DNA of 64,000 nt from Clostridia bacterium (GTDB lineage Bacteria; Bacillota; Clostridia; Christensenellales; QALW01): assembly GCA_045594045.1 (NCBI GenBank), contig JAZNXV010000032.1:14164-78163 (forward strand), in the 5' to 3' direction. The notes under the pieces are model-generated. The model had not been told where the DNA came from. It saw only the letters and a program-made list of their open reading frames with translations, and did no database searches. Below, piece by piece: positions 48,412 to 64,000 of the stretch. A program made the position numbers and the translations under genes. The stretch's first letter is position 1. Every line of letters begins with the position of its first letter.

Positions 48412-49620
48412 TTAAGATTCATCTAAAACCTGATTATTTTCAAATTGCTTTATAGCCTGGTCCATAGACTCAGTTGTAACGTGAACATAACGGTCCATCG
48501 TTGTTTTGATACTGGCATGGCCTAGTAACTTTTGCAGCACCTTCGGTTGCATACCTGCCTCGATTGCTCTTGTGGCGTAGGTATGGCGCAGAGCGTGCAT
48601 ACAAAATCGTTTGATTTTCGCTTCATCACAAAGCTTATAAAGATGTGTGTCGTAGGAACTGTTCTTTGCCGGTTCTCCTGTACGCCAATTGATAAACACA
48701 AGATTTTCCATCACAAGCTGAGAGGTGGCACCTGTTCGCCTGTCTATGTACTCAAGTGTTTCTAATAGTAAGGGAGACTTTTTCCTATGTTCACGATTAT
48801 CCCATATCTCTTTCAGAATGTTGTATGCGCGTTCTGTCAGAGGTATGGTGCGATAGCTTTGCGGTGTTTTGGGCGGTCCTGCTCGCCAATATCCTTGTTT
48901 GTGTCTGTACTCCAAAGTTTTGTTGACGGTAAGCGTACGCTTTTCAAAATCAATCGCATCCCAAGTAAGTCCTATCAGCTCACCCGTTCGCAAACCCGTC
49001 TCAAGAATCAAAGCGTATTGATTATAATTATGAGAACGCTTTGCTGCCTGAAGAAAAATCCGTTGCTCTTCACGGGTTAGGAATTTTATATCATCCTTTG
49101 CTCGAACAGGTTTTGTGTATCGAACGCCGTTCATCGGGTGCTTTATGATTAAATCATTCATCAATGCCGCTTTCAGCATCGTACCCATTGCAATATAGGT
49201 TTGTCGGATGGTTGAGCCTGCATAGGTTTCATCCATTTCCAGTAAAACCTTTTTGCAATGCATTGGCTTTACGTTAGCAATTGCCATTTTACCGATGACC
49301 GGTTGAATATTGAAGGTGTACCGTTCGCGGTAGTTTCGCAACGTGTTCGGTGCGAGATCTCCAACGATATTTTCTATCCAAAATTCAAACCATTCATCAA
49401 CCGTAGTTTCGGTCGGAACAAAAATGCCTTCATGCTTATCGGCGTACTTGCTTTCTTCAATCCAGTTGCGAGCTTCGGGAATGGTAGCGAAATATTTTTC
49501 GTGACGATTGCCTAATTTGTCAACAAATCTTGCGCTGTATAACCCATCCTTTCTTTGACGAATGCCTTTGCCGCATTCTTTACCCTTTAAATTCTTTCCC
49601 AATATGTACTCCTTTCCCAC
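48412..49620 (-). CDS. int: tyrosine-type site-specific integrase, Tn916 Int-like with N-terminal arm-binding domain
   Basis: Catalytic motifs HALRHTYAT and LLGHASIKTTMDRYVHV. The N-terminus GIRQRKDGLYSARFVDKLGNRHEKYF resembles the Tn916 Int-N domain. An alternative start is TTG 49602 behind AAGGAG. Confidence 0.9.
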   Translation of the reverse strand: MGKEYILGKNLKGKECGKGIRQRKDGLYSARFVDKLGNRHEKYFATIPEARNWIEESKYADKHEGIFVPTETTVDEWFEFWIENIVGDLAPNTLRNYRERYTFNIQPVIGKMAIANVKPMHCKKVLLEMDETYAGSTIRQTYIAMGTMLKAALMNDLIIKHPMNGVRYTKPVRAKDDIKFLTREEQRIFLQAAKRSHNYNQYALILETGLRTGELIGLTWDAIDFEKRTLTVNKTLEYRHKQGYWRAGPPKTPQSYRTIPLTERAYNILKEIWDNREHRKKSPLLLETLEYIDRRTGATSQLVMENLVFINWRTGEPAKNSSYDTHLYKLCDEAKIKRFCMHALRHTYATRAIEAGMQPKVLQKLLGHASIKTTMDRYVHVTTESMDQAIKQFENNQVLDES

Positions 49621-49717: not shown

Positions 49718-49924
49718 TTATATCGTCAGTCTTGAACTGATAAACTCTTCAAACTCTTTACGTTTTACCAACTTCTTCTTACCCACAAAAAGTACGAACG
49801 GACAGTTTGGTGTGCGAAGCATCTCATCAATTTTATTAATTCCAATATTGCTGTACTCGGCGGCTTCACGTATTGTCAACGCCAACTTTTCGTGGATAGG
49901 AACCGTTTGAACATTATCTGTCAT
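49718..49924 (-). CDS. xis: excisionase (Tn916 Xis-like HTH)
   Basis: 68 aa. LTIREAAEYSNIGINKIDEML...LVKRKEFEEFI parallels Tn916 Xis [20 protein letters not shown]...IKRKQFEKII (the Tn916 sequence is recalled from memory). Confidence 0.8.
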   Translation of the reverse strand: MTDNVQTVPIHEKLALTIREAAEYSNIGINKIDEMLRTPNCPFVLFVGKKKLVKRKEFEEFISSRLTI

Positions 49925-49996: not shown

Positions 49997-50014
49997 TTTC
50001 AAGAAAACATTAAC
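49997..50014 (-). promoter_or_regulatory. element 18-mer box GTTAATGTTTTCTTGAAA, copy a (upstream of xis-int)
   Basis: An exact 18-mer on the minus strand, about 75 nt upstream of the xis ATG. It contains the -35-like TTGAAA. Confidence 0.6.
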
Positions 50015-50060
50015 TAAATCTTCTGAAGAAAGTCGGCTAAAAAACAAAAAGAACATCACC

Positions 50061-50336: not shown

Positions 50337-50952
50337 TTATAGGGTAATTTTTGATTTACAATAATAATCGTACCTTATACAATGCTCAGCCGATGGAATG
50401 TTTATAAAAATCTAACTTTATCGTTCAAAATCATTAAAAAGCTTTTATTTTCGTTTTTCTATGACCAAAAGATAAAAAACTATAAAAATGATTTACTGTT
50501 CGATATGATTAGAGTTCGAGAGTTTTTTGCGCCTCTCGTTTTTGTATTTTAGACATTTTGAGAGAGCAAAATGATGCTCTGTATTTTTCACATTTACCTT
50601 CTTTTTTAGTTTTAAGAGCATCATACTTTCGGTTGCAAATGACAAAGAAATTATTTACATTTTGAGATGGGCAAGAGGGTCAGCAATCTTGTCATCCCAA
50701 AGGGACAGTCATCTTTTATAATCTCTATATGTAAATCATCGCAAATTGAATCGCACGAAATGACAGTCATTTATTCTCTCAAAACGCAAGTGAACCCCTC
50801 ATTAGAAAACGACAGTTTTCCCTATAATTAATCTCCTATTAATCTAAAAATAATCTATGAAGGTCATATACAAACGAGTACCATCTAATCATCCGGAAGA
50901 GAAAATCATCATCATTTGCAACCGACAATCATAAAAAATATCCCCATAAGAG

Positions 50953-50982
50953 AACGACCTGTGCCCGAAGGTGCAGGTCGTT
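50953..50982 (+). terminator. strong hairpin at the right end of the non-coding hub (terminator-like, plus strand)
   Basis: The 13-bp stem AACGACCTGTGCC / GGTGCAGGTCGTT has a CGAA loop. Two positions are G-U pairs on the plus-strand RNA but C-A mismatches on the minus strand. The downstream sequence AATGTTTTCTTG is only a weak U-tract. Confidence 0.5.
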
Positions 50983-50997
50983 AATGTTTTCTTGAAA
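50980..50997 (+). promoter_or_regulatory. element 18-mer box, copy b (upstream of the double-RHH-like operon)
   Basis: Exact GTTAATGTTTTCTTGAAA, about 100 nt upstream of ATG 51099. Similarity to copy a extends a further ~10 nt (TG-A-AAAA). Confidence 0.6.
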
Positions 50998-51098
50998 TGC
51001 AAAAACAAGGTCTATCAAATTTTATATGTTGAAAAATTTATTTGTGGCGGTCAAATAAGTTCTCTCAACGAAAAATTAAAAGAAAGAAGAATGTAATT

Positions 51099-51602
51099 AT
51101 GATAACTAAACATCATTTTGTACTAACAAAGAAGGAACCCGAGTTAATCGCATTTATTACCTCACTTCCAAAAGGTGAGCGCAGTAAAACGGTTATAACG
51201 ATTATGACCGAGGCGTTAGAAGATAGTGTTGCTACTATCCCTATGAATTTTAGCATAGAACCAAGCAGCCAAAATTTGCACACGAAATTTTCTCTGCCAG
51301 ATGATCTGGTAAAAAAGTTTTGCAAGAAGTTCGGTTGCACCAAGGGATCTGTTGCTCCCACAATTAAAAGAGTAATTAAAAGGTGTATCGAGAAAAATCT
51401 TGTAACGCAAGCAGAATGGAAGCTCCCGTCAGAATCCTTTGATTCAGCATTCCCAAAAATGTTTAAGCGTGACGGGGATAAATACGAGGCTTTGTTAGAT
51501 GACAAAGAAAAATACAGAAAAATGCTTAAGGAGCACAAAAGGAGCTTTCTTTTGATGAAAGACACACTTTATATAGAAAGGAAAACTAAAAATGAGGGAT
51601 AG
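51099..51602 (+). CDS. hypothetical protein, tandem ribbon-helix-helix-like repeats (paralogue 1)
   Basis: About 167 aa starting at MITKHHFVLTKKEPELIAFITSLPKGERSKTVITIMTEAL. It has two strand-helix-helix-like segments and shares DKEKYRKML with DKYRKLC in the next gene. Confidence 0.5.
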   Translation: MITKHHFVLTKKEPELIAFITSLPKGERSKTVITIMTEALEDSVATIPMNFSIEPSSQNLHTKFSLPDDLVKKFCKKFGCTKGSVAPTIKRVIKRCIEKNLVTQAEWKLPSESFDSAFPKMFKRDGDKYEALLDDKEKYRKMLKEHKRSFLLMKDTLYIERKTKNEG

Positions 51603-52230
51603 ACAAACCGTACACATTGAATTTGATAAGTCTGCTTCCGATATAATCTGTTGGATGCAAGCGTTGCCGCCTCGAACGGTCAACCAAACCGTAAACGAAA
51701 TTTTAAGTGCAGAAAGCCGTGGCAAAACGGCTCGGATTTTGCACCGATTTTCGTATACAACACAAGCAGAACCGATAGGCTGCCAATTTATTATCCGAGA
51801 CAAAGACGCTTTGGCATTCTTGGCGAAAATTCCAAAGAGGAAGAGAAAACAAGCAATTATAAACGCTATTCAAAAGCATATACGAAAAAATCAAGAAATG
51901 CCGCCCGAACCCTTCCGCATAAATGAAAAGGTTTATGAGATTCTGGAAGAATTTATACCCAAGATGGAGCAAAAGGAATTGGAGTATGCCGGGACTCCTG
52001 ATAAATATCGGAAGCTTTGCGATTGTTATACCTTGGCAAAACAAGCAATATATCGCGAGATCCACAACTGCTATCAATTTGTGGACGAAAATCGCGGCGA
52101 CCTCAACCTTAAAAATTTAGACTGCGGTAAGATTGTTGATTCCGTGTTCGAATCGGTTTTCGGAACCACAAAAAAAGATACGGTCCAAAGTAATAATCAA
52201 TATATTTTTAACAACAACTCAAATGAATAA
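51592..52230 (+). CDS. hypothetical protein, tandem ribbon-helix-helix-like repeats (paralogue 2)
   Basis: 212 aa. VHIEFDKSASDIICWMQALPPRTVNQTVNEIL and CQFIIRDKDALAFLAKIPKRKRKQAIINAIQKHI align by eye with the two segments of the preceding protein. It overlaps that gene by 11 nt. Confidence 0.5.
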   Translation: MRDRQTVHIEFDKSASDIICWMQALPPRTVNQTVNEILSAESRGKTARILHRFSYTTQAEPIGCQFIIRDKDALAFLAKIPKRKRKQAIINAIQKHIRKNQEMPPEPFRINEKVYEILEEFIPKMEQKELEYAGTPDKYRKLCDCYTLAKQAIYREIHNCYQFVDENRGDLNLKNLDCGKIVDSVFESVFGTTKKDTVQSNNQYIFNNNSNE

Positions 52231-52246
52231 AAACGGAGGTAATATT

Positions 52247-53098
52247 ATGAGTAATGAAAATGAAAATAAAACAGAATTAATGGCTATTGAACTGAACAAT
52301 CTTTTCAGCAAATTAAGCGCCAAAGAAAAGTTTGTTTTTGAAACTATTGTATCTAACGGCATTTCCGAAGAAAAAGAAGCCAAAGAAATTGTGGCTAATA
52401 TACCATTTGACGAAAATATGAGATTTATCAGCAAGGATACTGCTTGGCGTTCAATAATTACACTTGTTAAAGCGGGAATTTTCGATTTGCAAAGTATTCA
52501 TACCGGTTATCGCGTCTTTAATATTTTAAAATTAACCGATATAGGAGCTAAGCTGTATCGTCTGCAATTCAGGAAAGAACCGGCAGTGCAGGAACATATT
52601 CGACTAAGGAAAGAACATGCCAGTTACTTACATGGATATATGGTTAAGGACGTTGCAACAATCGTTGAGAAAAAGGGCTGGTATACTTGCATCTCGACCA
52701 ATCGAAAACAAAATACACTGAAAATTTCTGACGGCAGAACGCTGATACCGGACGTTATTGGAAAAAGCGGAGTAAAATTCGATTTGTATGAGGTTGAATG
52801 CGGAAATCATAATCAAGCTGATTTTAATGATAAATGTAATAAAATAATGACCGTCAGCCGAAAAATTATTATTGTCGGACAAAACAGGGATATCGTCACG
52901 AGAATTCTTAAACCGCAAGTAGAAAAATGGATTAAAACCGTTGGAAAAGGCGTGTTAAAAATGGTCGGTATGAAAGTATATCTGTTCGGTATGTCGGATT
53001 TAGCAGCAGGGCAAATAACATATTATTATGATATGAATTTTGAAGAACCTATTTGCTGTTTTAAGAAGCCGAAAAAGGAGGAAGCGACAGATGAGTAG
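52247..53098 (+). CDS. replication-relaxation (Replic_Relax)-like protein: N-terminal wHTH plus nuclease-like core
   Basis: GGAGG precedes ATG 52247. The C-terminal block LIPDVIGKSGVKFDLYEVECGNHNQADFNDKCNKI resembles the PD...E-x-D/E-x-G-T motif of Replic_Relax proteins. The match is by eye only. Confidence 0.45.
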   Translation: MSNENENKTELMAIELNNLFSKLSAKEKFVFETIVSNGISEEKEAKEIVANIPFDENMRFISKDTAWRSIITLVKAGIFDLQSIHTGYRVFNILKLTDIGAKLYRLQFRKEPAVQEHIRLRKEHASYLHGYMVKDVATIVEKKGWYTCISTNRKQNTLKISDGRTLIPDVIGKSGVKFDLYEVECGNHNQADFNDKCNKIMTVSRKIIIVGQNRDIVTRILKPQVEKWIKTVGKGVLKMVGMKVYLFGMSDLAAGQITYYYDMNFEEPICCFKKPKKEEATDE

Positions 53099-53366
53099 TA
53101 ATTTTATCAATGTTGGTAATAAGGTGTTTATCGATGCAAACAAAGTAAAGTTTATTGTGTCTGCCGATTCAGATAGAGTGCGCAAGCTCCTTTCCAAGCG
53201 AAAGTTCACAAGAACAAGTGATGAGGTGTTTGACGGAACATCGGACAAGGAAACCCGTTCCTTACTTATTTTGGATGATAATTCTTTCTGTATCTCAAGC
53301 GTGAATGCTGCCAAACTAGTTGAAAGAGCCAAAAGTGATATTGCTGAGTTGGTGGACGAAAAATAA
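53091..53366 (+). CDS. RemA/DUF370-like small DNA-binding regulator
   Basis: 91 aa behind AGGAGG. FINVGNKVFIDANKVKFIVSADSDRVRKLL...ETRSLLILDDNSFCISSVNAAKLVER parallels B. subtilis RemA [30 protein letters not shown]...[23 protein letters not shown] (the RemA sequence is recalled from memory). Confidence 0.5.
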   Translation: MSSNFINVGNKVFIDANKVKFIVSADSDRVRKLLSKRKFTRTSDEVFDGTSDKETRSLLILDDNSFCISSVNAAKLVERAKSDIAELVDEK

Positions 53367-53422: not shown

Positions 53423-53854
53423 TTATACTCTTGGTTCTCCATACTCTCTGCGCATAGCACTCATGGAAACGACCCACTGTTTACCAAACTTACACACGTC
53501 AACGCCTTCAACTAATTTACCATAGCTGATGGCTTTTCTGAGTGTGCTTTCGTTCAGAGCCCAAAGGTCAGTGGCATCACTGAATGCCATAAGACCATCA
53601 AAGGGAGTTTCTACCTCAACGCCGTTCTCCCATAGTTCATCACAGGAGAGATCTAAATCATCATTCCATACGATGCCGTGGCCGCCTACATCAACGATAA
53701 CCTCAGAGAACAGGTGAGGATCCTTCAACTCCGCAAAGAATGGTATGCGTTCAAACAAAGGCTTCACATCGTATATCTTAGTGCACCCTTCTACAAACTG
53801 AACGCTTAAGCGATATTCAGGCAACGGAGAAATATTTTTGATCTTATGAAACAT
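53423..53854 (-). CDS. DUF2442 domain protein with C-terminal HTH
   Basis: N-terminal DUF2442-like domain (ISPLPEYRLSVQFVEGCTKIYDVKPLF...). The C-terminus ATDLWALNESTLRKAISYGKLVEGVDVCKFGKQWVV is a typical Firmicute HTH. Confidence 0.65.
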   Translation of the reverse strand: MFHKIKNISPLPEYRLSVQFVEGCTKIYDVKPLFERIPFFAELKDPHLFSEVIVDVGGHGIVWNDDLDLSCDELWENGVEVETPFDGLMAFSDATDLWALNESTLRKAISYGKLVEGVDVCKFGKQWVVSMSAMRREYGEPRV

Positions 53855-53864
53855 AATAGCCTCC

Positions 53865-54170
53865 TTACTCTAACGGAGGAAGATGCTTGAAATCCTGAGT
53901 TTCCCAAATAGCAACGAGCTCGTTTTTGTGAAGGGATATCCATTCTCTTACCATTTCAAGCGCTTTAGAAGGCAAAGCACCTTCCAACACCTTTCCGTCA
54001 GCGATTGTGATTGCCGCCATATCATCGCCGTAAATTGCGTGGATATGCGGCGGATTGTGTTCCTTTTGTAAAAAGTACATACGGATTGTAATTCCGTAAA
54101 ATCTTGATAATACTGGCACTTCATCCACTCCTTTCAATTGCATTATATCACGGTATCGTGATATTGTCAA
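53865..54170 (-). CDS. DUF4160 domain protein
   Basis: FYGITIRMYFLQKEHNPPHIHAIYGD is the DUF4160 hallmark. It is paired with the DUF2442 gene. Confidence 0.7.
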   Translation of the reverse strand: MTISRYRDIMQLKGVDEVPVLSRFYGITIRMYFLQKEHNPPHIHAIYGDDMAAITIADGKVLEGALPSKALEMVREWISLHKNELVAIWETQDFKHLPPLE

Positions 54171-54207: not shown

Positions 54208-54225
54208 GTTAATGTTTTCTTGAAA
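54208..54225 (+). promoter_or_regulatory. element 18-mer box, copy c (upstream of the serine recombinase gene)
   Basis: Exact GTTAATGTTTTCTTGAAA. TTGAAA is followed 18 bp later by TATATT, about 55 nt upstream of ATG 54309. Confidence 0.6.
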
Positions 54226-54281: not shown

Positions 54282-54923
<642 letters not shown>

Positions 54924-54926
54924 GAA

Positions 54927-54960
54927 ACGGCTATCAAAAGGTGTACCTTTTGATAGCCGT
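54927..54960. promoter_or_regulatory. IRL: palindromic candidate recombination site (also a possible terminator of the recombinase gene)
   Basis: ACGGCTATCAAAAGGT-GT-ACCTTTTGATAGCCGT, with 16-bp arms around a central GT (54943-54944), followed by TTTTAT. Confidence 0.6.
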
Positions 54961-54972
54961 TTTATGATGTAC

Positions 54973-55001
54973 ATTATATCATAAAACACTTGGAAGCGCA
55001 A
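54973..55001 (-). promoter_or_regulatory. near-consensus promoter inside the candidate invertible cassette, currently facing away from the surface-protein gene
   Basis: On the minus strand: TTGCGC (55001-54996), 17-bp spacer, TGaTATAAT extended -10 (hexamer 54978-54973). Confidence 0.55.
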
Positions 55002-55076
55002 CATAAAAAAATGAAAAATATTGAATTTTGTCTTTTATTATCTAAAAACGCAAAAAGTATTTGAATTAATAAATTA

Positions 55077-55102
55077 TTCTCAAAAGGTACACCTTTTGAG
55101 AA
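55077..55102. promoter_or_regulatory. IRR: palindromic candidate recombination site, inverted copy of the IRL core
   Basis: TTCTCAAAAGGT-AC-ACCTTTTGAGAA. The 20-bp core 55080-55099 is the exact reverse complement of 54934-54953. Confidence 0.6.
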
Positions 55103-55125: not shown

Positions 55126-58100
55126 ATGAAAAACTCTTTGCTCAAGAAGATGCTTGCAACTATCATTGCAGTTATATTAGTTGTTGGCATCTCGGCAGGA
55201 ACAAGCATTTTAGTTGATAAAAAAAGCGTTCCTGCATCAACAACAATCGAAAACGGCCTATCTGCTTACGATCTTGCTGTTCAAAACGGTTACAAAGGTG
55301 ATCTTGAACAATGGCTGATGTCGCTTGTTGGTGAAACAGGCACTGCGGGCTCTAATGGCAAGTCAGCGTATGAGCTTGCTTGCGAAAACGGATATAAGGG
55401 TACTATGACCGAATGGTTGGGTTCTCTTATCGGTACGCCCGGTGAAAATGGCAAGGTTGGTAAAGATGGCAAATCTGCTTATGAACTTGCTGTTGAAAAT
55501 GGATATAAAGGCACACTTAATGAGTGGCTTACATCTATACTTGATAAAACTGGTGCTGATGGAGCAAACGGTGCTGACGGTAAGTCGGCATATCAGTTAG
55601 CAGTTGAAAACGGATTTACCGGAACTATGTCTGAGTGGCTCGATTCTCTCGTTGGACGTAATGGTTTATCTGCATATCAAGTTGCTAAAAACAATGGTTT
55701 TACTGGTAGCGAAAGCGAATGGTTGTCAACTCTTGTTGGTGTTGCAGGTACAAATGGCGTTGACGGTAAATCCGCATATCAAATTGCCAAGGAGAACGGT
55801 TTTACCGGTACCGAAAACGAATGGTTACAGTCTCTTGTTGGACTTAAGGGTGACAAAGGTGACAAGGGCGATAAAGGTGATACCGGTGCAGCTGGCGCTA
55901 ATGGATTAAATGGTAAGTCTGCATTCGAAATTGCAGTTGCCAATGGCTATACCGGAACTGAAGCCGAATGGTTACAAACACTTGTGGGTGTCAAAGGTGA
56001 CAAAGGCGATAACGGTGCAACAGGTTCCGATGGTAAATCCGCTTATGAGCTTGCGGTATCAAATGGATATACCGGAACTGAAGCCGAGTGGCTGCAAACT
56101 CTTGTAGGCGCGAAAGGCACTGACGGTAAGTCTGCATATGACGTTGCAGTTGACAACGGCTTTATCGGCAACGAAAGCACATGGCTTGCATCTTTAGTCG
56201 GAGAAAAAGGCGATACAGGTGCACAAGGCAAATCAGCATACCAAGTAGCAGTTGCAAATGGCTATATTGGAACCGAACAGGCATGGGTTGCTTCTCTTGT
56301 CGGTGAATCTGCCTACGAAATTGCCGTAAGAAATGGTTATAAAGGAACTGAAGCTGAGTGGTTGGCATCCCTTGTTGGTGAGCCGGGTCAAAAGGGAGAC
56401 AAAGGTGACACCGGAGCAACGGGTGCTAACGGTAAATCCGCTTATGAGCTTGCTGTTTTGGCAGGCTTCGAAGGTGATGAGCAAGAATGGTTTGCTTCAC
56501 TTGTTGGCGCAACCGGCTCTAAGGGTGATAAGGGCGATAAAGGCGACCAAGGAAATAAAGGTGACACCGGTGCAACAGGTGCAGCGGGTAAATCGGCTTA
56601 TGAATTAGCAAAAGAAAACGGTTATACCGGAAGTCTTACGGAATGGCTAGAATCTCTAAAGGGTGAAGCAGCTGCCAAGGGAGACAAAGGTGACAAAGGC
56701 GATACCGGTGCTGACGGAAAGTCTGCATATGATTTAGCAAAAGAAAATGGTTATGAAGGAACCTTGGAAGATTGGCTTGACAGTTTGATAGGAACCAAAG
56801 GAGATAAAGGTGACGCAGGTACAGATGGTAAGTCTGCTTATGACCTTTATTGTCAGAATAATTCTGGCGAAGATATGAGTGAAGCCGAGTGGCTTGCTTC
56901 CTTAAAAGGAATTGCTGGTCAAAACGGAAAAAATGGCAAATCCGCTTATGAGTTATACTGTGAAAATAATTCAGGGGAAGATTTAGACCTTGCTGATTGG
57001 CTTGCTTCTTTACATGGTGACAAAGGTGATGCTGGTGCCGATGGTAAATCCGCTTATGACCTTTATTGCGAAACAAATGAAGGTGTTGAACTTTCTCTTG
57101 AAGAATGGTTAGCCTCATTAGTTGGTGCTGATGGTACGAATGGTAAATCTGCTTATGAATTAGCATATGAAGCTGATAACACAATAGGAACGCAGCAGGA
57201 ATGGCTTTTATCATTAAAAGGAAAAGATGGTAAATCTGCTTACGAAATCTATTGTGAACATCATGAGGGTGAGGATTTATCTGTAGTAGACTGGCTTGCA
57301 TCGCTTAAAGGTGAACAAGGACCTAAGGGTGATAAAGGTGACCCAGGTGTTAATGGAAAAACTCCATATATCAAAGATGGAAATTGGTGGATAGATAATA
57401 CAGATACAGGAATAAAAGCAGAAGCTTCTGACGGTTCAAACGGCAATGATGGTGTAAGCGTTGTTGATAGTTATGTAGATGATAACTTGCATTTATGGAT
57501 TGTGTTATCGAATGGTTCAAAAATTGATGCTGGTTATGTCGGTGTAACGACAGCCAATCCTTCTATCCCAACTAAGTTTACGGTGGTTTTCAAGGACTAT
57601 AACGGCACTATTTTGAAAACTGAAGACGTTGAATCTGGCAAATCTGCTACCGCCCCTACCAATCCTTCCAGAGACGGATACGTATTTGCGGGATGGGATA
57701 AAGATTTTAGTAACATTACCGCTGGTATGGTTGTTAATGCTACATACACTCAAATTACCGAGCCGACCATAAAAATAGCGAATATTACTACATCTGCCGG
57801 TTCTTCGGATGTGGCTGTAACTTTGAACATTATGAACAATCCCGGCATTGTTGGAATGACCTTGAAATTGGGATATGACGATAGCATCTTGACGCTTACA
57901 AGCATTGAGAAAGGCGATGCATTAAGCGAAATGACATTTACAAAGCCGAGAACTTTGAAGAATGGTTGTACACTTCAATGGGATGCTGAAGTAGTGATGC
58001 CTGAGGATGCTACCAACGGCGTTATGCTTACTTTGTATTTTGATGTTTCGGATAGTGCTACAGTGGGTACCCAAAACATTACATTAAGTTATGATAATGG

Positions 58101-58170
58101 TGCCATTATCGACAATGATTTAGCATCGGTGAATATGTCAATTATCAACGGCATTGCTACAATTAATTAA
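55126..58170 (+). CDS. membrane-anchored surface protein: 19 SAYELA-type modules interleaved with collagen-like GXY runs, one Listeria-Bacteroides (Flg_new) repeat, C-terminal cohesin-like domain
   Basis: ATG 55126 follows GGAGG. There is an N-terminal signal anchor (MKNSLLKKMLATIIAVILVVGISAG) and GDKGDKGDKGDTGAAG-type triplets. FTVVFKDYNGT...GYVFAGWD marks the Flg_new repeat. The cohesin-like tail is NNPGIVGMTLKLGYDDSILTLTSIEKGDAL... Confidence 0.85.
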   Translation: MKNSLLKKMLATIIAVILVVGISAGTSILVDKKSVPASTTIENGLSAYDLAVQNGYKGDLEQWLMSLVGETGTAGSNGKSAYELACENGYKGTMTEWLGSLIGTPGENGKVGKDGKSAYELAVENGYKGTLNEWLTSILDKTGADGANGADGKSAYQLAVENGFTGTMSEWLDSLVGRNGLSAYQVAKNNGFTGSESEWLSTLVGVAGTNGVDGKSAYQIAKENGFTGTENEWLQSLVGLKGDKGDKGDKGDTGAAGANGLNGKSAFEIAVANGYTGTEAEWLQTLVGVKGDKGDNGATGSDGKSAYELAVSNGYTGTEAEWLQTLVGAKGTDGKSAYDVAVDNGFIGNESTWLASLVGEKGDTGAQGKSAYQVAVANGYIGTEQAWVASLVGESAYEIAVRNGYKGTEAEWLASLVGEPGQKGDKGDTGATGANGKSAYELAVLAGFEGDEQEWFASLVGATGSKGDKGDKGDQGNKGDTGATGAAGKSAYELAKENGYTGSLTEWLESLKGEAAAKGDKGDKGDTGADGKSAYDLAKENGYEGTLEDWLDSLIGTKGDKGDAGTDGKSAYDLYCQNNSGEDMSEAEWLASLKGIAGQNGKNGKSAYELYCENNSGEDLDLADWLASLHGDKGDAGADGKSAYDLYCETNEGVELSLEEWLASLVGADGTNGKSAYELAYEADNTIGTQQEWLLSLKGKDGKSAYEIYCEHHEGEDLSVVDWLASLKGEQGPKGDKGDPGVNGKTPYIKDGNWWIDNTDTGIKAEASDGSNGNDGVSVVDSYVDDNLHLWIVLSNGSKIDAGYVGVTTANPSIPTKFTVVFKDYNGTILKTEDVESGKSATAPTNPSRDGYVFAGWDKDFSNITAGMVVNATYTQITEPTIKIANITTSAGSSDVAVTLNIMNNPGIVGMTLKLGYDDSILTLTSIEKGDALSEMTFTKPRTLKNGCTLQWDAEVVMPEDATNGVMLTLYFDVSDSATVGTQNITLSYDNGAIIDNDLASVNMSIINGIATIN
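55255..57360 (+). repeat. intragenic repeat array: ~19 copies of a ~25-aa module (K)SAYE[LI]A[VK]xNG[YF]xGTxxEWLxSLxG separated by variable-length Gly-X-Y stretches
   Basis: Modules were counted directly in the translated ORF. Spacer length varies from 0 to ~9 triplets. The last four or five modules are a diverged subtype (SAYDLYCxNNSGEDxxxxEWLASL). Confidence 0.85.
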
Positions 58171-58186
58171 TGAGAGGAGAACGCAA

Positions 58187-61100
58187 ATGAAGTGTAGACG
58201 ATTATTATCCGCACTTTTGGTAGCTGTAATGATATTAAGCAGTATACCATTGAGTGCTATCAGTGTAATAGCTGCTACCGGTTCTGAAACAAAGATTTCA
58301 GTTAACGATACCTTTGCAGCAAGCGGGACAGAGGTCAGCGTTGATGTCATTATCGAAAATAATCCTGGGATTCTAGGTATGACTCTGAAATTAGAGTACG
58401 ATGATGAATATGCAACACTTATGTCCGTTGTTAACGGAGAGGCTTTAAGCGCTATGACTTTTACCGCACCTAAAAGCCTTCAAAGCGGCTGTAATCTCCA
58501 ATGGGATGCTGAGTTTGTAGATGACGAAGATATTATCGATGGAGTAGTAGCCACCTTAACCTTCGAAATTTCCGAAGAAGCTCCTTCAAACAAAGAGATT
58601 GCTATCAGTCTTTCCTATGATAACGGTGCAATTATTGATAATGATTTAAATCCAATCAGCGTTTCGTTATCGAGCGGTACTATCAAAATCTTAGATTATA
58701 CCCCCGGTGATCTTAATGGCGATGGCACAATCAACTCTACAGACGTAGTTTACCTAAGACGATACATAGCTGGTTATGATATTACCATTAAAGAAGCGGC
58801 CGGTGACGTAAATGATGACGGCTTGTTGAACAGTACTGATGTTGTTTTCATAAGAAGATTTATTGCCGGTTACGACATTCAATTGAAGCCTTCTACCCCC
58901 AAGTGTCAGCATGTGATGACGGCGACAGAAGCAAAGGCAGCTTCTTGCACGGAGGATGGCAATATTGCTTATTGGTATTGTGAAGATTGTAACAATTATT
59001 TTAGTGATGCTAATGGACATACTAAAATTGAAATTGAAGAAACCGTAATAGAGGCTACCGGACATACACCTGTTGTGGACCTTCCTAAAGCTCCCACAAA
59101 AACCGAAACAGGCTTGACGGAGGGGTCACATTGCTCGGCATGTAAGGAAGTCATTGTGCCTCAACAAATATTACCTGTTTTAACAAGTTACGCAGTTACT
59201 TATAACATAGCTACAGGAAACAGCGCTAGCTATATTGCTGCGCAAGGTTTAGATTTAACAATTGATGACGATAAACGCTCATATATAAGTCAAGAAGGCC
59301 TTATAGAACTTCCGGTTCTTTCTATTGATGGCTATCAGTTCTTAGGCTGGTACACTGAAGCACCTGAGAATAATAATGCAGTTCAAGTTACTTCAATTCC
59401 TGTAGGTTCAACAGGTAATTATACGTTATATGCGCATTGGCACGAATATACGTATGATATTACATATAAGTTGTATCAGACACCTTTAGGCGAAATAACA
59501 AATGAAGAATATCTTCATTATACTGTTAGCAAAGGTAAGGTTGATTTACCCAATCCTGAGTTACACAACTACGTGTTTATTGGTTGGTATACAGACGATG
59601 GTGTAGAAATGACAAAGATACCTGTTGGAACAACCGGAGATTTAACGTTAAATGCGTATTGGACCAGCAAGAGAAACCTCACTAAAGTAGTTAAAAAATT
59701 AGAAGACCCCATTATTATAGAGAATAGTGACGATGGAGTTATATACTTTACTTATGAACTTGGTACAATTGAAAATGTTCCATTATCAGATGCAATTTGG
59801 ACGATACAAAGTGTATCGGGCTTAGCACAACAAGTTTCCAAAACAGTGTCAACGCAAATTAGTGAGGAGCAAGCAAAGAATATTGCGGAAACTATTTCTA
59901 ATTCAACGGTTGATTCTGGTAGTTGGACTTTATCAAAAGACTGGAACGATGTAACGGAAGTTAATGAAGAATGGGCAGAACAGAATGGATTAACCCAGGA
60001 AGAAGCAAACACACAAACAAAAAGCAGTTCAGGAACATATAGCGTTACGGATTCCACGGGCGGAACGAAAACCAAGACAACAACAGATGGAACAACAACA
60101 GTTGATTATAATAGTCAGAATTATACGCACGGAAACAGTGCTGAATTTAATGCGAAAGTTAGTGGTTCGTATTCAAACAAAGGAAATCTTTCAAGTGCGA
60201 TTGCAGGAACATATGAGGTGTCGGCCGAAATTAGTGGAGGTTACGAACAACATCAAGAAACAAACGAACATACTGGCACTGATACAACTACAGTGGATAC
60301 AACAGTTAAGTCCGGTACAGCAACATTTAACAAAGCATCCACATCTACAAACACTCAGTCTGCCAGTGAAAGTGTTACTGTAAAAAATGCAATTTCACAG
60401 ATTATAAGCAATACAAAGGGATATGGTAAGTCATACTCTTCTGGCGGAGCCAATAGCGAATCGCAAGGGTTTAGTTCAACAGATAGTAAGAGCGTAAATA
60501 CATCTTCCACACTTACATATTTTACATCCAAGACTGAAACAACTACAACAACTTATTCCACTGATGGTAAAAATGAAGGTTGTTACCGATTAGTTGTAGC
60601 AGGCACCATCCATGTGTTTGGCGTTGTAGGATATGATGTTGCAACAAAATCTTATTTTGCGTATACTTTTAACGTATTAGATGATAAAACCTATGAATTC
60701 CTTGATTATTCGCCTACTTTAAGTTTTGATGACTATGAAAATGGTGCAATACCTTTCGAAATCCCGTATTTTGTACATGAGTACGTTATAGATAAGACTG
60801 TTATGACAGATGGTCTTATATTTAAAACAAACACAACTAATGGTACAGCAACTGTTGTTGCATATGATGGTGCTGATAGTGATATTACTATTCCTTCGTA
60901 TTTTACCTCTGGTAACGTTGCATACAAAGTTAATGCTTTATCAGCTAGTGCATTTGCAGGTAAAAATGTACGTTCGGTAGTTTTGAGTGATTATATAACA
61001 GAATTACCAGACGGTGCATTTAAAAATTGTGCGCAATTGGAAGAAATTTCAGGATACTTCACAAAAATTGGTGCAGAAGCATTTAGTGGATGTGCTAAAC

Positions 61101-62647
61101 TCAACAAGTATAACATAACCTCAAGCATAGTGAAAATCGGCGAAAATGCGTTTGCTGGCGTTGAAGAAATTTATGTTAATGCTATAGATAAAGAAAGCGC
61201 ATTGGCAGAAGCTAATAAGAAATATCCCAATCTTGATGATGGCGAATTACTTATTTGCGCAAAGTCAATAACACAAGACGTAATTGATTCTGCTATAAAC
61301 TCAGGAGCAGATAATATAATGTTAAACATTTCAAATGTTATCGACAATATAGGTTTAACTCTTAATGTACCTGCAATCACGTCGTTTGAACTGCAAGGTG
61401 GCTTAAAAGAATATAAAGACTTAAAACTTAATTCAGATGCAGAGACAACCACAATAAAGGATATTACTATCCATAATAGCAAACAAATTCCTTTGGAAAT
61501 ATCCTCAAAAGTATTAAAATTAGATGCTGCAACAATAGAAGGAAATGGCTTTGTTCTTTTGCTTAATGCGGACACACCTACTGTTTCGTTAACAAGAGAT
61601 AGCAGATTGATTTCTGTGGAAAAAGAAGCGGTTGTATGGAAAAATCCTTCAATTTCATCAAGTGTTGTAGATAATGCTGTTGGTACTTTGGATATAACAG
61701 GAAACATTTATGTTTGTGGTGATATCGAAGGTAAAGATTACATAAATGTTGAAAGTGGTGCAATTATCAGCATATCCGAAAGCGAATTTGAAAATTATAT
61801 CAAAGGCATTTATACTGTTACGTTTAATGCTAATGGCGGTCAAGTAAGTATGATAGATAAGACAGTATTTTATGGCTCCCAATTCGGAGAACTTCCAATA
61901 CCTACTCTTGACTACCATACTTTTGATGGCTGGTTTACAGAGAATGGTACCGAAGTAACGGCTGATACAATTATGACGGAGGCAAAAGATATTGTTCTTA
62001 ATGCACATTGGACGCAAAACGATGCGTCTGGCTGGGTTTTAGAATCTGAGGTTCCAAGTGATGCTGAAATAGTTAATGAAAAATGGACGTATGATTTAAC
62101 CACTAAAATAACTTCTAGCAGTAATAATGTTTCTGGTTACAATCTATATGATGCAACGTGGGTATGGAGCAACTATGGCCACTGGACAAATTGGTCCTCA
62201 AGCGCAGTAGAATCAAGTGATTCCAGAGAAGTGGAAACAAAGAAAGTTGTAGACCGCGCTTCTTATACACAGTGGAACATATATTATTATCGTTATTGGA
62301 ATACAACGTATGGAGCATACTATTATACGTTTTCATCTGCTTATGGCGGAACCTTGTATCAAAGGTCTCTTCCCGAATCTAGCTTAGCATTTAGCAAATA
62401 TGCTTCCGGACGAGATGCTTACATTATTATTAATGAGGCCGACAGGAATTTCCGTGGAGAACTTTGGTTTGTAAGTTCAACTGAAACAATTCCTGAGATT
62501 GCACATACTGAATATAGATACAGAGAAAGAACGAAAATATATACATATTATCACAGCAAGACAGAGGCGAAAGAATCGTTCTCGCAAGTTACACCTAGTG
62601 ATTCTATTAGCAACGTTCAACATTGGGTTCAGTACCGCGCAAAATAA
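58187..62647 (+). CDS. large secreted multidomain protein: signal peptide, cohesin-like domain, type-I dockerin, Flg_new repeats, Thr/Ser-rich region, BspA-type leucine-rich repeats, C-terminal Trp/Tyr-rich domain
   Basis: ATG 58187 follows GAGAGGAGA. The cohesin is paralogous to the upstream protein's tail (NNPGILGMTLKLEYDDEYATLMSVVNGEAL). The dockerin has duplicated Ca-binding loops DLNGDGTINSTDVVYLRRYIAG and DVNDDGLLNSTDVVFIRRFIAG (nt ~58706-58876). The LRR segment is ITIPSYF...AFAGKNVRSVVLSDYITELPDGAFKNC. Confidence 0.85.
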   Translation: MKCRRLLSALLVAVMILSSIPLSAISVIAATGSETKISVNDTFAASGTEVSVDVIIENNPGILGMTLKLEYDDEYATLMSVVNGEALSAMTFTAPKSLQSGCNLQWDAEFVDDEDIIDGVVATLTFEISEEAPSNKEIAISLSYDNGAIIDNDLNPISVSLSSGTIKILDYTPGDLNGDGTINSTDVVYLRRYIAGYDITIKEAAGDVNDDGLLNSTDVVFIRRFIAGYDIQLKPSTPKCQHVMTATEAKAASCTEDGNIAYWYCEDCNNYFSDANGHTKIEIEETVIEATGHTPVVDLPKAPTKTETGLTEGSHCSACKEVIVPQQILPVLTSYAVTYNIATGNSASYIAAQGLDLTIDDDKRSYISQEGLIELPVLSIDGYQFLGWYTEAPENNNAVQVTSIPVGSTGNYTLYAHWHEYTYDITYKLYQTPLGEITNEEYLHYTVSKGKVDLPNPELHNYVFIGWYTDDGVEMTKIPVGTTGDLTLNAYWTSKRNLTKVVKKLEDPIIIENSDDGVIYFTYELGTIENVPLSDAIWTIQSVSGLAQQVSKTVSTQISEEQAKNIAETISNSTVDSGSWTLSKDWNDVTEVNEEWAEQNGLTQEEANTQTKSSSGTYSVTDSTGGTKTKTTTDGTTTVDYNSQNYTHGNSAEFNAKVSGSYSNKGNLSSAIAGTYEVSAEISGGYEQHQETNEHTGTDTTTVDTTVKSGTATFNKASTSTNTQSASESVTVKNAISQIISNTKGYGKSYSSGGANSESQGFSSTDSKSVNTSSTLTYFTSKTETTTTTYSTDGKNEGCYRLVVAGTIHVFGVVGYDVATKSYFAYTFNVLDDKTYEFLDYSPTLSFDDYENGAIPFEIPYFVHEYVIDKTVMTDGLIFKTNTTNGTATVVAYDGADSDITIPSYFTSGNVAYKVNALSASAFAGKNVRSVVLSDYITELPDGAFKNCAQLEEISGYFTKIGAEAFSGCAKLNKYNITSSIVKIGENAFAGVEEIYVNAIDKESALAEANKKYPNLDDGELLICAKSITQDVIDSAINSGADNIMLNISNVIDNIGLTLNVPAITSFELQGGLKEYKDLKLNSDAETTTIKDITIHNSKQIPLEISSKVLKLDAATIEGNGFVLLLNADTPTVSLTRDSRLISVEKEAVVWKNPSISSSVVDNAVGTLDITGNIYVCGDIEGKDYINVESGAIISISESEFENYIKGIYTVTFNANGGQVSMIDKTVFYGSQFGELPIPTLDYHTFDGWFTENGTEVTADTIMTEAKDIVLNAHWTQNDASGWVLESEVPSDAEIVNEKWTYDLTTKITSSSNNVSGYNLYDATWVWSNYGHWTNWSSSAVESSDSREVETKKVVDRASYTQWNIYYYRYWNTTYGAYYYTFSSAYGGTLYQRSLPESSLAFSKYASGRDAYIIINEADRNFRGELWFVSSTETIPEIAHTEYRYRERTKIYTYYHSKTEAKESFSQVTPSDSISNVQHWVQYRAK

Positions 62648-62656: not shown

Positions 62657-62690
62657 ACCAAGCCCGCTGCGTTTATGCAGCGGGCTTGGT
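62657..62690 (+). terminator. strong hairpin after the large surface-protein gene (no clear U-tract)
   Basis: 14-bp perfect stem ACCAAGCCCGCTGC / GCAGCGGGCTTGGT with a 6-nt loop. Confidence 0.5.
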
Positions 62691-62733: not shown

Positions 62734-64000
62734 GTGACTGAAAAACACACAGCTAATAAAAAAGATAATAATATTTTGAAAAATCGTAATAAGACATTTT
62801 TGTGGTGGATATGCACGCCAATAATTGTAATTTCAATAGTAGAAATTATTTTCACAGGGGCTCTGCTTTGGTTTTTATATACTGATAAAATTTCTGCAAA
62901 CACATTCGATTCATCTATGGAAAGTTCGCTTTTGACCAGCGGTATTGCGATTATAGGAGCGGCTATCGCTGTTTGGGCCGGCTTAAATATAGCAAATGCG
63001 ATTGAACGGAACGAATATGAAAAACTGAAAGAAAAAACGGACACGTTAGCCGAAGCGCTTGAGGAGAAAAGCCAGGATGTAGCTCAATTAGTCAATGTAA
63101 TAGATCAAGGAACCACACAGTTTCGTGAATTAGAGAAAAAGGATGCCCAAAGAAGTGCGAAATACGAGGAACTTGAGAAAATAGCATTGCTTAATGAGCT
63201 CTCAATGACGAGTAATGATGCAGCGACAAGACAGTTAATGAAGATTGTTAATACTTATAAATTGGGAACTGGTTTTCCAATTGCTGAGTTAGTAATGTTG
63301 GAAAGATATTTTCGCTTGGTTTACAAAAAACATAGTAGCAAATTTCATAAAGATATTGAATTACTTACATATGTCGATGAAGGAATACGAATTGCCAATA
63401 GTCTTCTTGCACTTACAACAAATGAAGAACTGAGAGCTTATATTCTCTTTAGAAAAGCAGAATTATTATTTTATAGTGGTTATTGTCTGAGCGGTAACGA
63501 AAAAAGAATAGCATTTGAAGAAGCAATTCAGTTATATTTTGAATCAGCTAATAAATTGAATGCGAATTTGCCTGATTTTAAAGAACTGGTCGAATTCAAA
63601 AAAATCACTTATGAAGGATGCAGTTTAAATCAGGTAGAAATATCCGCATACATGTGTAACACAATAGGTGAAGCATATAGCAAAATTATCGAGAGCCTCG
63701 CAAAAGATGATGTTTTGTTCGATGAATATGGTCATAAAGCAATTTTCTATTGTGCTTATGCTGCATATTGGAACAACAAAGAACTTTATTTGCGAAATTT
63801 AGGGTGTGCTATCGAAAGGCACCGCGGAGTAACGGATAAAACATATGATGAACTATTCGAAATATATCAAAATACAATTTCGATTAATGCTACTTCAAAA
63901 ACATTTAAGGTTCTATTATCTGTGGCCGATAAATTTATAAATTATTATATAGGAATAAAAGAAGTAGATATCAAGAAGGGGCGTGAAACGCCACTCAATA
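62734..64000 (+). CDS. partial CDS (runs off right edge): 2-TM N-terminus, coiled coil, alpha-helical repeat (TPR-like) region; function unknown
   Basis: Own translation from GTG 62734 behind AAGGAGAGGG: (M)TEKHTANKKDNNILKNRNKTFLWWICTPIIVISIVEIIFTGALLWFLY... The frame is open for 422 codons to the window end. It is absent from the ORF track because there is no stop codon. Confidence 0.65.
   Translation, partial: MTEKHTANKKDNNILKNRNKTFLWWICTPIIVISIVEIIFTGALLWFLYTDKISANTFDSSMESSLLTSGIAIIGAAIAVWAGLNIANAIERNEYEKLKEKTDTLAEALEEKSQDVAQLVNVIDQGTTQFRELEKKDAQRSAKYEELEKIALLNELSMTSNDAATRQLMKIVNTYKLGTGFPIAELVMLERYFRLVYKKHSSKFHKDIELLTYVDEGIRIANSLLALTTNEELRAYILFRKAELLFYSGYCLSGNEKRIAFEEAIQLYFESANKLNANLPDFKELVEFKKITYEGCSLNQVEISAYMCNTIGEAYSKIIESLAKDDVLFDEYGHKAIFYCAYAAYWNNKELYLRNLGCAIERHRGVTDKTYDELFEIYQNTISINATSKTFKVLLSVADKFINYYIGIKEVDIKKGRETPLN

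Follow-up and report, generated by a model that had tools for sequence, protein, structure and literature searches.

The window analysed here is the whole 64,000-nucleotide (nt) stretch of contig JAZNXV010000032.1 (positions 14,164 to 78,163) from a Clostridia bacterium. Towards its right-hand end it holds a gene for a serine DNA invertase, followed by an operon of two genes, P1 and P2. P1 encodes a stalk protein with a hydrophobic anchor at its N terminus and a cohesin at its C terminus, and P2 a giant secreted protein that has both a cohesin and a dockerin. I consider it fairly probable, judging from sequence comparison, that the two form a phase-variable surface fibre of two components that are joined by a cohesin-dockerin 'click'. 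A preliminary description of this DNA had already outlined both open reading frames (ORFs) and the order of their domains; both were recovered at the same positions, and all domains called in P1 and P2 exceeded their Pfam thresholds when the domain models were run.

The stalk protein and its secreted partner

The features of P1 are as follows (aa, amino acids).

55126..58170, plus strand: P1, an ORF of 1014 aa; membrane-anchored stalk protein with a cohesin at the distal end
55150..55215, plus strand: hydrophobic anchor, aa 9-30, with KK in front (read from sequence)
55261..57363, plus strand: stalk of 19 repeat units (repeat parse, Pfam Collagen, PHROG)
57577..57711, plus strand: Flg_new (Listeria-Bacteroides) repeat, aa 818-862 (Pfam, 36.6 bits)
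57766..58152, plus strand: C-terminal cohesin, aa 881-1009 (Pfam Cohesin, 27.8 bits)

A GGAGG ribosome-binding motif lies 7 nt upstream of the P1 ATG. At the position of the anchor, homologues of P1 have either the same hydrophobic segment or a lipobox (LLSGC, LTSC, FAGC, LGSC), and it is because these homologues are lipoproteins that I infer retention of P1 in the membrane. The stalk (aa 46-746) consists of 19 copies of a 24-residue unit, SAYELAvxNGYxGTxxEWLxSLxG, each followed by 0-10 collagen-type GXY triplets, which amount to 77 triplets in total according to the repeat parse. A short conserved 'neck' separates the stalk repeats from the Flg_new repeat. The Pfam Collagen model scored 40.5 bits on P1 (cut-off 27.2) and Flg_new passed its cut-off of 27 bits, while P1 stayed below the cut-offs of the NCBIfam models of the Scl and Lcl collagen adhesins (84 vs 325 bits and 68 vs 500 bits, respectively). 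Searched against PHROG, the shaft matched tail-fibre families with E-values as low as 1e-161, and a tblastn search matched 470 phage records, of which the top-ranked were jumbo-phage tail fibres at 35-46% identity. The DNA of the island had a single match in phage and plasmid collections, a 38-bp tail-fibre repeat. P1 has no LPXTG motif, and its C terminus is the cohesin.

Stalk length differed between two related loci with an identical P2 (L070 3169-5976 and L071 3361-5976), where the stalk proteins of 935 and 871 aa are set apart by a clean indel of 64 residues. This indicates a polymorphism in repeat number, and with it in stalk length, inside one lineage.

P2 starts 16 nt after the P1 stop codon and is preceded by a GAGGAG ribosome-binding site. 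Its features are listed below (AF2, AlphaFold2).

58187..62647, plus strand: P2, an ORF of 1486 aa; secreted protein with a signal peptide and the order cohesin, dockerin, Flg_new, Mid, leucine-rich repeats (LRRs)
58292..58690, plus strand: N-terminal cohesin, aa 36-168 (Pfam 41.2 bits, AF2, Foldseek)
58703..58864, plus strand: dockerin, aa 173-226 (Pfam Dockerin_1 46.7-49.8 bits, PDB 1DAQ)
58883..59176, plus strand: two small Cys/His-rich modules, aa 233-330 (invariant columns, AF2)
59177..59671, plus strand: pair of Flg_new repeats (Pfam and TIGR02543)
59672..60826, plus strand: 'Mid' domain, aa 496-880, including a Ser/Thr-rich stretch (conservation)
60806..61216, plus strand: BspA-type LRRs (Pfam LRR_5, PDB 4gt6)
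61811..62008, plus strand: Flg_new repeat, aa 1209-1274 (Pfam)
62015..62644, plus strand: Trp/Tyr-rich C-terminal domain (no Pfam match)
62660..62687, plus strand: GC-rich hairpin with an 11-bp stem, 13 nt past the P2 stop (read from sequence)

The Pfam cut-offs for the two docking modules are 24.1 bits (Cohesin, PF00963) and 22.9 bits (Dockerin, PF00404). The cohesin of P1 was thus above its cut-off, and that of P2 reached its score as an isolated fragment while it was absent from the scan of the whole protein. The two cohesins are 48-54% identical to each other (54% at an E-value of 1e-42). AF2 modelled P2 aa 25-335 with a mean predicted local distance difference test (pLDDT) score of 90.8 and a predicted template-modelling score (pTM) of 0.63, the cohesin part being at a pLDDT of ~94, and Foldseek matched this part to solved cohesins at an E-value of 1e-10 with target-normalised template-modelling (TM) scores of 0.64-0.81 (5lxv, 2xdh, 5nrm, 4dh2, 1aoh). 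Among these matches are cohesins of anchoring and adaptor scaffoldins as well as the non-cellulosomal cohesin of Archaeoglobus fulgidus. The P2 module is accordingly modelled with a cohesin fold. The dockerin, which follows the cohesin at a spacing of ~4 residues, consists of two near-identical F-hands, DLNGDGTINSTD and DVNDDGLLNSTD, each with xxxxRR after it (LRRY, IRRF). Its best alignment was to the type I dockerin of Clostridium thermocellum CelS (PDB 1DAQ, E-value 4e-10), and its calcium-ligand columns are invariant in 25 homologues; by sequence it is type I-like, and calcium-dependent binding is predicted. Paralogous cohesins in both proteins and a dockerin with duplicated F-hands in P2, as they had been described before, were thus recovered by Pfam, the CelS match and the AF2 and Foldseek models. 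A six-frame scan of the 64-kb window with family-specific hidden Markov models (HMMs) returned only these two cohesins and this one dockerin.

Behind the dockerin, the two Cys/His-rich modules have invariant residues (H242, C254, C265 and C268 in one; H293, C316 and C319 in the other), were modelled as beta-hairpin knuckles at a pLDDT of 88-95, and match residues 851-909 of PDB 9qa6, an 'IgA protease', in sequence; they are probably zinc-ribbon-like. The three Flg_new repeats of P2 scored 73.6 bits in Pfam and the LRR_5 model 53.7 bits over aa 918-995, and the LRR region matched PDB 4gt6, a 'cell surface protein', at an E-value of 3e-24. By analogy, LRRs and Flg_new repeats would favour a function in adhesion.

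The best-conserved part of P2 is Mid, a domain of 385 residues that is 84-90% identical to its closest homologues, as against 33-34% for the P2 cohesin. It had no match in Pfam and no sequence or profile match in PDB, and its AF2 model was poor (pLDDT 46.9). What had been taken for a Thr/Ser-rich linker turned out to sit within this conserved domain, so the linker has to be given up. The Trp/Tyr-rich C-terminal domain, in comparison, stood as described, with a mean identity of 36% across the family and no matching family in Pfam. It is a candidate for the ligand-binding tip because it is the most variable part of P2 after the cohesin. A stand-alone ORF of 196 aa at another locus (L032 4867-5457) matches this C-terminal domain only (E-value 1e-22), which suggests that the domain is an autonomous module.

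The hairpin downstream of P2 probably marks the end of the operon; it was not flagged by the terminator scanner because it lacks a T tract. A promoter scan inside the P1-P2 operon gave no enrichment, and a look-up of the exact P2 sequence in public assemblies returned no record.

The proposed recombinase switch

The gene upstream of P1 and the sites around the intergenic region are the following.

54309..54923, plus strand: serine DNA invertase, 204 aa (Pfam Resolvase 91.7 bits; PHROG 'DNA invertase', E-value 3e-51)
54932..54955, no strand: left hix-like site, TATCAAAAGGT-GT-ACCTTTTGATA, centre 54943-54944 (inverted-repeat search)
54945..55088, no strand: putative invertible promoter segment, 146 bp from centre to centre, flanked by both sites
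54973..55001, minus strand: best promoter in the segment, TTGCGC, 17-nt spacer, TGaTATAAT (extended -10; read from sequence)
55078..55101, no strand: right hix-like site, TCTCAAAAGGT-AC-ACCTTTTGAGA, centre 55089-55090 (inverted-repeat search)

Between the invertase stop and P1 there are 203 nt. The left site begins 9 nt after the invertase gene and is nested in a 38-bp palindrome (54925-54962), a terminator-like hairpin that could double as the terminator of the invertase gene. With its end 25 nt ahead of the P1 start codon, the right site leaves no room for a fixed operon promoter. Both sites are 24-bp imperfect palindromes, and the central dinucleotide of one is the reverse complement of that of the other, as is the case for sites in inverted orientation. 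The half-site TATCAAAA resembles hix. The invertase switch that had been proposed for this operon is thus supported by paired hix-like sites between the invertase stop and the P1 start.

The same site design, with arms and centres changed, was found in three other serine-type lineages, namely L021 (AAAAAGT arms, GT/AC centres), the L076 family (TT/AA centres, with an invertase that is 92% identical) and the L086 family (TT/AA centres), and the central dinucleotides were reverse complements in every lineage examined. The minus-strand layout of TTGC.., 17 nt and TGnTATAAT recurs in the L076 and L086 lineages, minus-strand extended -10 elements also occur in L013, L014 and L042, and no promoter was callable in L021. 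Since the best promoter of the segment points away from P1, the switch is read, with moderate confidence, as probably OFF as assembled. Inversion of the segment would bring the -10 element to ~65 nt before the P1 start codon. Because no more than 3/6 positions of its -35 element match, this promoter was missed by the consensus scanner.

Homologues of the invertase are widespread at 85-96% identity, and those at 91-92% lie directly upstream of P1-like genes; in the L076 family, the invertase is followed by a P1-like gene and then by a dockerin/Flg_new protein. The segment had one and the same orientation in ten contigs with invertases of the P0270 family and in four with those of the P0299 family. 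Across more than 100 clusters (P0262-P0380) the identity of the invertase of 85-96% compares with at most 70% for the P1 and P2 genes. Many of the invertase contigs are just 1-2 kb long, as though assemblies break at the switch or at the stalk repeats. Six contigs (L089, L090, L091, L092, L094, L095) have an invertase identical to that of L086, while the exact 145-bp segment between the sites is gone and one hybrid hix-like site is left. In five of them P1 is cut off after ~200 codons and followed by unrelated genes (helix-turn-helix (HTH) and RelB in L089), and L090 ends earlier. I read all six as a decayed, promoter-less allele that is present in several samples.

A tyrosine recombinase of ~280 aa takes the equivalent position in 13 loci, and the serine type is found in the window and three others. 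In 12/12 tyrosine-type loci examined, inverted repeats of the form ACAACATAAT-N6-ATTATGTTGT flank 145-290 bp within the gap between the recombinase and the first structural gene. In the P0013 family, a segment of 250 bp is present as the exact reverse complement in 3/9 near-identical contigs from different samples, which is direct evidence that inversion occurs in nature for this operon family, as observed in one of its tyrosine-type lineages. The recurrence of the site design in three serine lineages and this real inversion at a homologous tyrosine-recombinase locus lend the proposed switch further support. The promoter consensus allowed no ON/OFF assignment for the P0013-family switch. No further inversion was found in contigs of the P0068 family, which break inside the stalk repeats, and both contigs of the P0032 pair have the same orientation. 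Loci of P0037 showed no upstream recombinase, their contigs stopping just before the first gene. That two unrelated recombinase families are associated with the same operon is a strong argument that ON/OFF variation is integral to it.

Proposed docking of the two proteins and competing explanations

More than 120 full-length homologues of P2 were found at 41-70% identity, and the sole name that the sources give them is 'InlB B-repeat-containing protein'. From a set of 1.84 billion representatives, a profile of the Mid region retrieved 491 clusters (50% identity); nearly all of the proteins are 1400-1700 aa long and have the domain in a matching position, and the domain is almost never found on its own. 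A P2-type gene is present on contigs of 43 species-level metagenome-assembled genomes (MAGs) from human, goat, sheep, cattle and deer gut, with hosts in Oscillospiraceae, Lachnospiraceae, Acutalibacteraceae, Ruminococcus, Agathobacter, Faecousia and Feifaniaceae. Synteny is kept in ~40 non-redundant loci from Clostridia of gut and rumen. The partner gene at nearly all of these loci encodes a protein of 173-1219 aa that has a transmembrane segment, a lipobox or a signal peptide at its start and a cohesin at its end, while the middle part varies between a shaft of SAYE repeats and collagen, collagen combined with a beta-strand repeat, and short non-repetitive spacers.

The co-occurrence of dockerin and partner was counted over non-redundant loci with an intact P2 N terminus. 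A separate cohesin ORF lies beside 34/36 dockerin-bearing P2 homologues and beside 0/5 without a recognisable dockerin (Fisher p 2.8e-5). Moreover, the anchor has been swapped in three of these five: three N-terminal surface-layer homology (SLH) repeats replace the cohesin and dockerin in P0021 and P0092, and a lipoprotein signal does so in L016. In these three cases the cohesin partner gene is absent and the remaining protein is conserved, and L016 retains the recombinase switch. By this swapping, the part of P2 with cohesin and dockerin is identified as the anchoring end, the one close to the cell.

Of all P2 modules the cohesin evolves fastest, its low identity having been seen among the same homologues that have a nearly unchanged Mid. 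Cohesin pairs inside one locus are on average 39.5% identical, compared to 31-32% for cohesins at orthologous positions across loci. The distance matrices of the dockerin, the P1 cohesin and the P2 cohesin correlate with one another at r 0.70-0.81 (partial Mantel p <= 0.0005) and each of them with the P2 core at r of about 0.1. The dockerin correlates with the P1 cohesin at r 0.75 and with P2's own cohesin at r 0.70, and three dockerin types sort both cohesins, but not the P2 core. Comparative genomics thus supports, through co-occurrence, anchor swaps and co-variation, the earlier proposal that the P2 dockerin docks onto the anchored stalk. As both cohesins follow the dockerin type, the dockerin could plausibly bind either. 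The linker of ~4 residues argues against binding in cis, and dimers or chains of P2 formed in trans are possible.

Some loci encode additional adaptor-like proteins with the architectures Coh-Coh-Coh-Doc, Doc-Coh-Coh, Doc-Coh and Coh-Coh-Doc (Coh, cohesin; Doc, dockerin; L024 12329-13777, L033 6807-8255, L022 7878-9314, L029 7893-8627, L012 8041-9426). The P2 homologues of L024 and L033 have a dockerin and no cohesin of their own, and a cohesin protein is adjacent. The family thus appears to include more elaborate, hierarchical assemblies. Locus L003 has two tandem P2 paralogues (5184-9863 and 10001-14938; 1559 and 1645 aa), one P1-like stalk gene and a tyrosine-recombinase switch; here, two alternative cargos may share a single stalk.

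From these comparisons I infer how the parts would work together, including physical docking, trimerisation, chain formation, the ON/OFF state and a role in adhesion. P1 would be exported by the Sec pathway and held in the membrane by its N-terminal anchor. Its shaft of ~700 residues, made of tail-fibre-type repeats and collagen triplets, would probably trimerise and span the cell wall, so that the C-terminal cohesins are presented at the tip. P2 would be secreted, and its calcium-type, internally symmetric dockerin would plug into a P1 cohesin, so that Mid, the BspA-type LRRs and the C-terminal domain with its variable sequence are displayed at a long distance from the cell, where they would most likely bind a host, food-particle or bacterial ligand. 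Further P2 molecules may dock in trans on the cohesin of P2, which is of the same specificity class, and give rise to chains or swapped dimers. Transcription would depend on the 146-bp segment that is flipped by the adjacent serine invertase, and the whole cassette would be carried by a Tn916-like integrative element. A bolder version, which I regard as doubtful though conceivable, is a self-extending 'cohesin-dockerin pilus', in which the trimeric stalk nucleates a head-to-tail polymer of P2 and docking specificity is swapped as a cassette of P1 cohesin, P2 cohesin and dockerin that keeps the fibres of co-resident strains orthogonal.

Several observations weigh against the proposed phase-variable fibre. 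The N-terminal segment of P1 contains a possible signal-peptidase site (ISA|G). Two dockerin-bearing loci, L026 and L028, have no separate cohesin gene in the sequence at hand. The dockerin and both cohesins are contiguous (~1.2 kb), and recombination of the block alone could give rise to the co-variation, which weakens the case for co-adaptation at the level of residues, although block exchange would still mark a functional cassette. As for the switch, the OFF call rests on a -35 element that matches 3/6 positions, there is a weaker promoter candidate on the plus strand (TTGATA, 16 nt, CATTAT; 9/12), and a flipped serine-type segment was absent from 15 assemblies in three lineages (the window, 10 L076-family and four L086-family contigs). 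Furthermore, no function is assigned to Mid, the best-conserved domain of P2, and the term 'adhesin' may therefore miss what the protein really does.

P2 contains a complete cohesin-dockerin pair, and it could be that P1 and P2 do not dock together at all: the dockerin would bind only the cohesin of P2 itself, in a swapped dimer or an auto-inhibited form, and the P1 cohesin would take a dockerin encoded elsewhere. The visible part of the genome is 64 kb, and the adaptor proteins at some loci (Coh-Coh-Coh-Doc, Doc-Coh, Doc-Coh-Coh) make wiring beyond one-to-one possible. I nevertheless consider this unlikely, given that the window has no second dockerin, that the P2 homologues of L024 and L033 kept a dockerin and an adjacent cohesin protein without having a cohesin themselves, that the partner gene is missing where the dockerin has been lost, and that the dockerin co-varies with the P1 cohesin at least as strongly as with that of P2. 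Another alternative leaves the docking architecture as it is and differs in function alone: in analogy to Clostridioides difficile CwpV, the fibre may be no adhesin and mainly protect the cell from phages or host immunity, as a shield or decoy that is phase-variable. It would fit with phase variation, carriage on a mobile element, accessory neighbours in related loci (NERD, Macro, relaxase) and a stalk built of phage tail-fibre-type repeats, and the decayed, switch-deleted alleles suggest that the trait is costly and can be dispensed with. On the other hand, BspA-type LRRs and Flg_new repeats are typical of adhesins and invasins, the strongly conserved P2 core fits a specific activity better than a passive shield, and no defence-system family turned up, none having been tested for; a shield is thus distinctly unlikely. 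It is very unlikely that P2 is a surface-tethered beta-barrel pore-forming or membrane-active effector, with a Gly-rich amphipathic hairpin of Mid between Ser/Thr tracts as the pore element and the LRR and C-terminal domains used for targeting. AF2 does model P2 aa 636-702 as a long beta-hairpin, each of the 15 best Foldseek matches in PDB is the pore form of a beta-pore-forming toxin (alpha-haemolysin, CytK, LukGH, Vibrio cholerae cytolysin), with aerolysin and epsilon toxin ranking lower, and the hairpin arms AEFNAKVSGSYS and IAGTYEVSAEIS rank 4th and 1st in family-averaged hydrophobic alternation, above the 99th percentile. The Gly-rich amphipathic hairpin pattern (AEFNAKVSGSYS ... IAGTYEVSAEISGGYE) with Ser/Thr tracts on either side is also conserved across homologues. 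But the hairpin has a pLDDT of 24-38, the Foldseek matches are at an E-value of 0.01 or worse, a probability of at most 0.16 and a TM-score of about 0.1, so that no match is significant, ordinary beta-sandwich strands give similar alternation scores, no sequence match to toxin families was found in Pfam or PDB, and Mid is almost never a protein by itself.

Two further explanations were rejected. Cohesin, dockerin and an anchored scaffoldin-like protein are parts of carbohydrate-degrading cellulosomes and amylosomes, and scaffoldins with LRR, Flg and transmembrane segments appear in a 2026 preprint on ruminococcal cellulosome-like systems (bioRxiv 10.64898/2026.02.05.704116). The window has one dockerin, no dockerin-bearing enzyme and two single cohesins; no glycoside hydrolase (GH) or carbohydrate-binding module (CBM) was found in P1, P2 or the scanned neighbours, and the operon pairs a cohesin protein with P2 in nearly every locus. 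That the locus belongs to such a complex is thus exceedingly unlikely, and the previous statement that it is not a cellulosome holds inside the 64-kb window, in which there is no other dockerin or cohesin. The very strong matches of the P1 shaft to phage tail-fibre families may also be taken to mean that the locus is the remnant of a prophage tail-fibre module with a Gin/Cin-type invertase, in which cohesin and dockerin are incidental; serine invertases beside tail-fibre genes are classic in phages Mu and P1. This is barely credible in view of the export signals, namely the membrane anchor of the P1 protein and the signal peptide of P2, and of the absence of phage relatives of P2 and of phage structural genes nearby. 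The module also occurs at ~40 loci, where it is often flanked by housekeeping genes and preceded by a recombinase of the tyrosine type, and the flipped segment is the size of a promoter and not the C-terminal part of a fibre gene. A two-component fibre joined by docking therefore remains the preferred reading.

Genomic surroundings and relation to known systems

The features at the left-hand border of the island are listed below.

47211-48299: chromosomal ychF, adjoining the integrase gene
48412..49620, minus strand: tyrosine integrase (Pfam Phage_integrase 102.8 bits, plus SAM-like N-terminal domains)
49718..49924, minus strand: Tn916-type excisionase, 68 aa (Pfam Tn916-Xis, E-value 6.5e-32, 110 bits)

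The excisionase gene lies directly upstream of the integrase gene, and at ~50 kb the GC content falls and the gene orientation switches. The integrase and excisionase genes, their junction with ychF and the shift in GC content imply that the operon lies, as the preliminary description had it, in an integrative element; its right end and attachment sites are outside the window. Across the family the module is mostly a self-contained cassette of a recombinase and its genes, and a mobile element is not always involved (e.g. L001, L060, L070). Related modules adjoin relaxase or integrase-excisionase genes in some loci, and others lie between housekeeping genes with only their own small recombinase. 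Mobility in the family thus seems frequent, but not obligatory.

An 18-nt sequence, GTTAATGTTTTCTTGAAA, occurs three times in the element (49997-50014 on the reverse strand, 50980-50997 and 54208-54225). One copy overlaps the -35 element (TTGAAA) of a promoter-like site before the invertase gene, one precedes the ORF at 51042 and one faces the excisionase-integrase pair, and the sequence may serve the element as a common operator or promoter. Between the excisionase gene and the first plus-strand ORF (50000-51040) there is ~1 kb without an ORF of more than 56 aa, and this stretch is flanked by a 46-nt inverted repeat that is 80% complementary (49969-50014 and 50980-51025). Three ORFs of the element (186, 212 and ~283 aa; 51042-53366 and 53423-54170) had no match in Pfam or PHROG, and a RemA-like protein is encoded at 53040-53366. 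A divergent pair of DUF4160 and DUF2442-HTH genes just upstream of the invertase resembles a small module of the toxin-antitoxin type. Downstream of the operon, an ORF that leaves the window (62734-64000) has an N-terminal transmembrane segment, a coiled coil and a large helical domain, and no significant Pfam match.

A full-text literature search found no paper that combines cohesin-dockerin, a collagen-like stalk and an invertible switch. The words collagen and 'invert' are absent from the bioRxiv preprint cited above, which appears not to cover the stalk or the switch. The module thus does not seem to have been described previously, and in kind it seems to be non-cellulosomal cohesin-dockerin surface display. 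Cohesin-dockerin assembly has so far been understood almost wholly via cellulosomes and amylosomes, and here it would serve to build a dedicated, enzyme-free surface fibre. With ~490 clusters of its P2 core at 50% identity, the module is widely distributed among gut and rumen Clostridia that have not been cultured. Its ON/OFF control is linked to two unrelated recombinase families, and integrative elements carry it at times. If the docking model is true, it provides a concrete mechanism by which Gram-positive commensals show very large binding proteins beyond the wall, and, since its docking modules diverge in sets that match, the family may be a natural source of cohesin-dockerin pairs that are orthogonal to one another. 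The phase-variable surface structures with a bearing on gut colonisation, aggregation or phage interactions would also gain a further class.

The closest relatives in terms of parts are the anchoring and adaptor scaffoldins of cellulosomes and amylosomes (OlpA/OlpC-type proteins of C. thermocellum, ScaB/ScaC of Acetivibrio cellulolyticus, ScaE-ScaB-ScaA of Ruminococcus flavefaciens and the amylosome of Ruminococcus bromii). Both have a cell-bound cohesin and a secreted dockerin with duplicated F-hands, a protein with cohesin and dockerin acts as an adaptor in the scaffoldins as P2 would, and their cohesins are the best structural matches of the P2 cohesin. Unlike the scaffoldins, the module described here has no enzymes, no CBMs and one cohesin per protein, and P1 has an N-terminal transmembrane or lipid anchor and a collagen- and tail-fibre-like stalk in place of SLH domains or a sortase signal. 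Its cargo is one giant protein with LRRs and Flg_new repeats, encoded in a dedicated operon under a site-specific recombination switch. Cohesin-dockerin assembly unrelated to cellulose is also known from A. fulgidus (cohesin 2XDH) and the toxin-complex cohesins of Clostridium perfringens (e.g. 2W1N), both of which are among the structural matches of the P2 cohesin, but these have no stalk protein, no such paired operon and no phase switch.

The collagen-like shafts of phage tail fibres belong to the same repeat family as the P1 shaft, and the collagen triplets of tail fibres and of collagen-like proteins (Scl1/Scl2, BclA) imply a rod of three chains by which a distal head is kept off the surface. 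P1 differs from tail fibres in that it has an N-terminal membrane anchor, ends in a cohesin and not in a receptor-binding head, and is no part of a virion. With adhesins of the BspA and InlB type, P2 has LRR_5 and Flg_new repeats in common, but it would attach by its dockerin and not by GW, LPXTG or SLH elements, and it is dominated by the large conserved Mid.

With regard to the switch, Hin/Gin/Cin-type and Bacteroides Mpi-type systems have a recombinase of ~200 aa beside the invertible DNA and ~24-bp imperfect palindromes with reverse-complementary central dinucleotides. The adjacent recombinase of ~200 aa, the layout of the sites and the promoter-sized segment are shared with the switch upstream of P1. 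Compared to Hin/Gin/Cin, the segment is just 146 bp long here, and no inversion was seen in the 15 serine-type assemblies; Firmicutes are not expected to have a Fis homologue. For the tyrosine-recombinase versions of the module, the closest functional analogy is CwpV of C. difficile, a large repetitive surface protein with a RecV-controlled invertible switch upstream. CwpV is a single protein that is anchored by CWB2 and has neither cohesin-dockerin nor a separate stalk protein, unlike the module described here, in which the display of P2 would be divided between an anchored stalk and a docked cargo.

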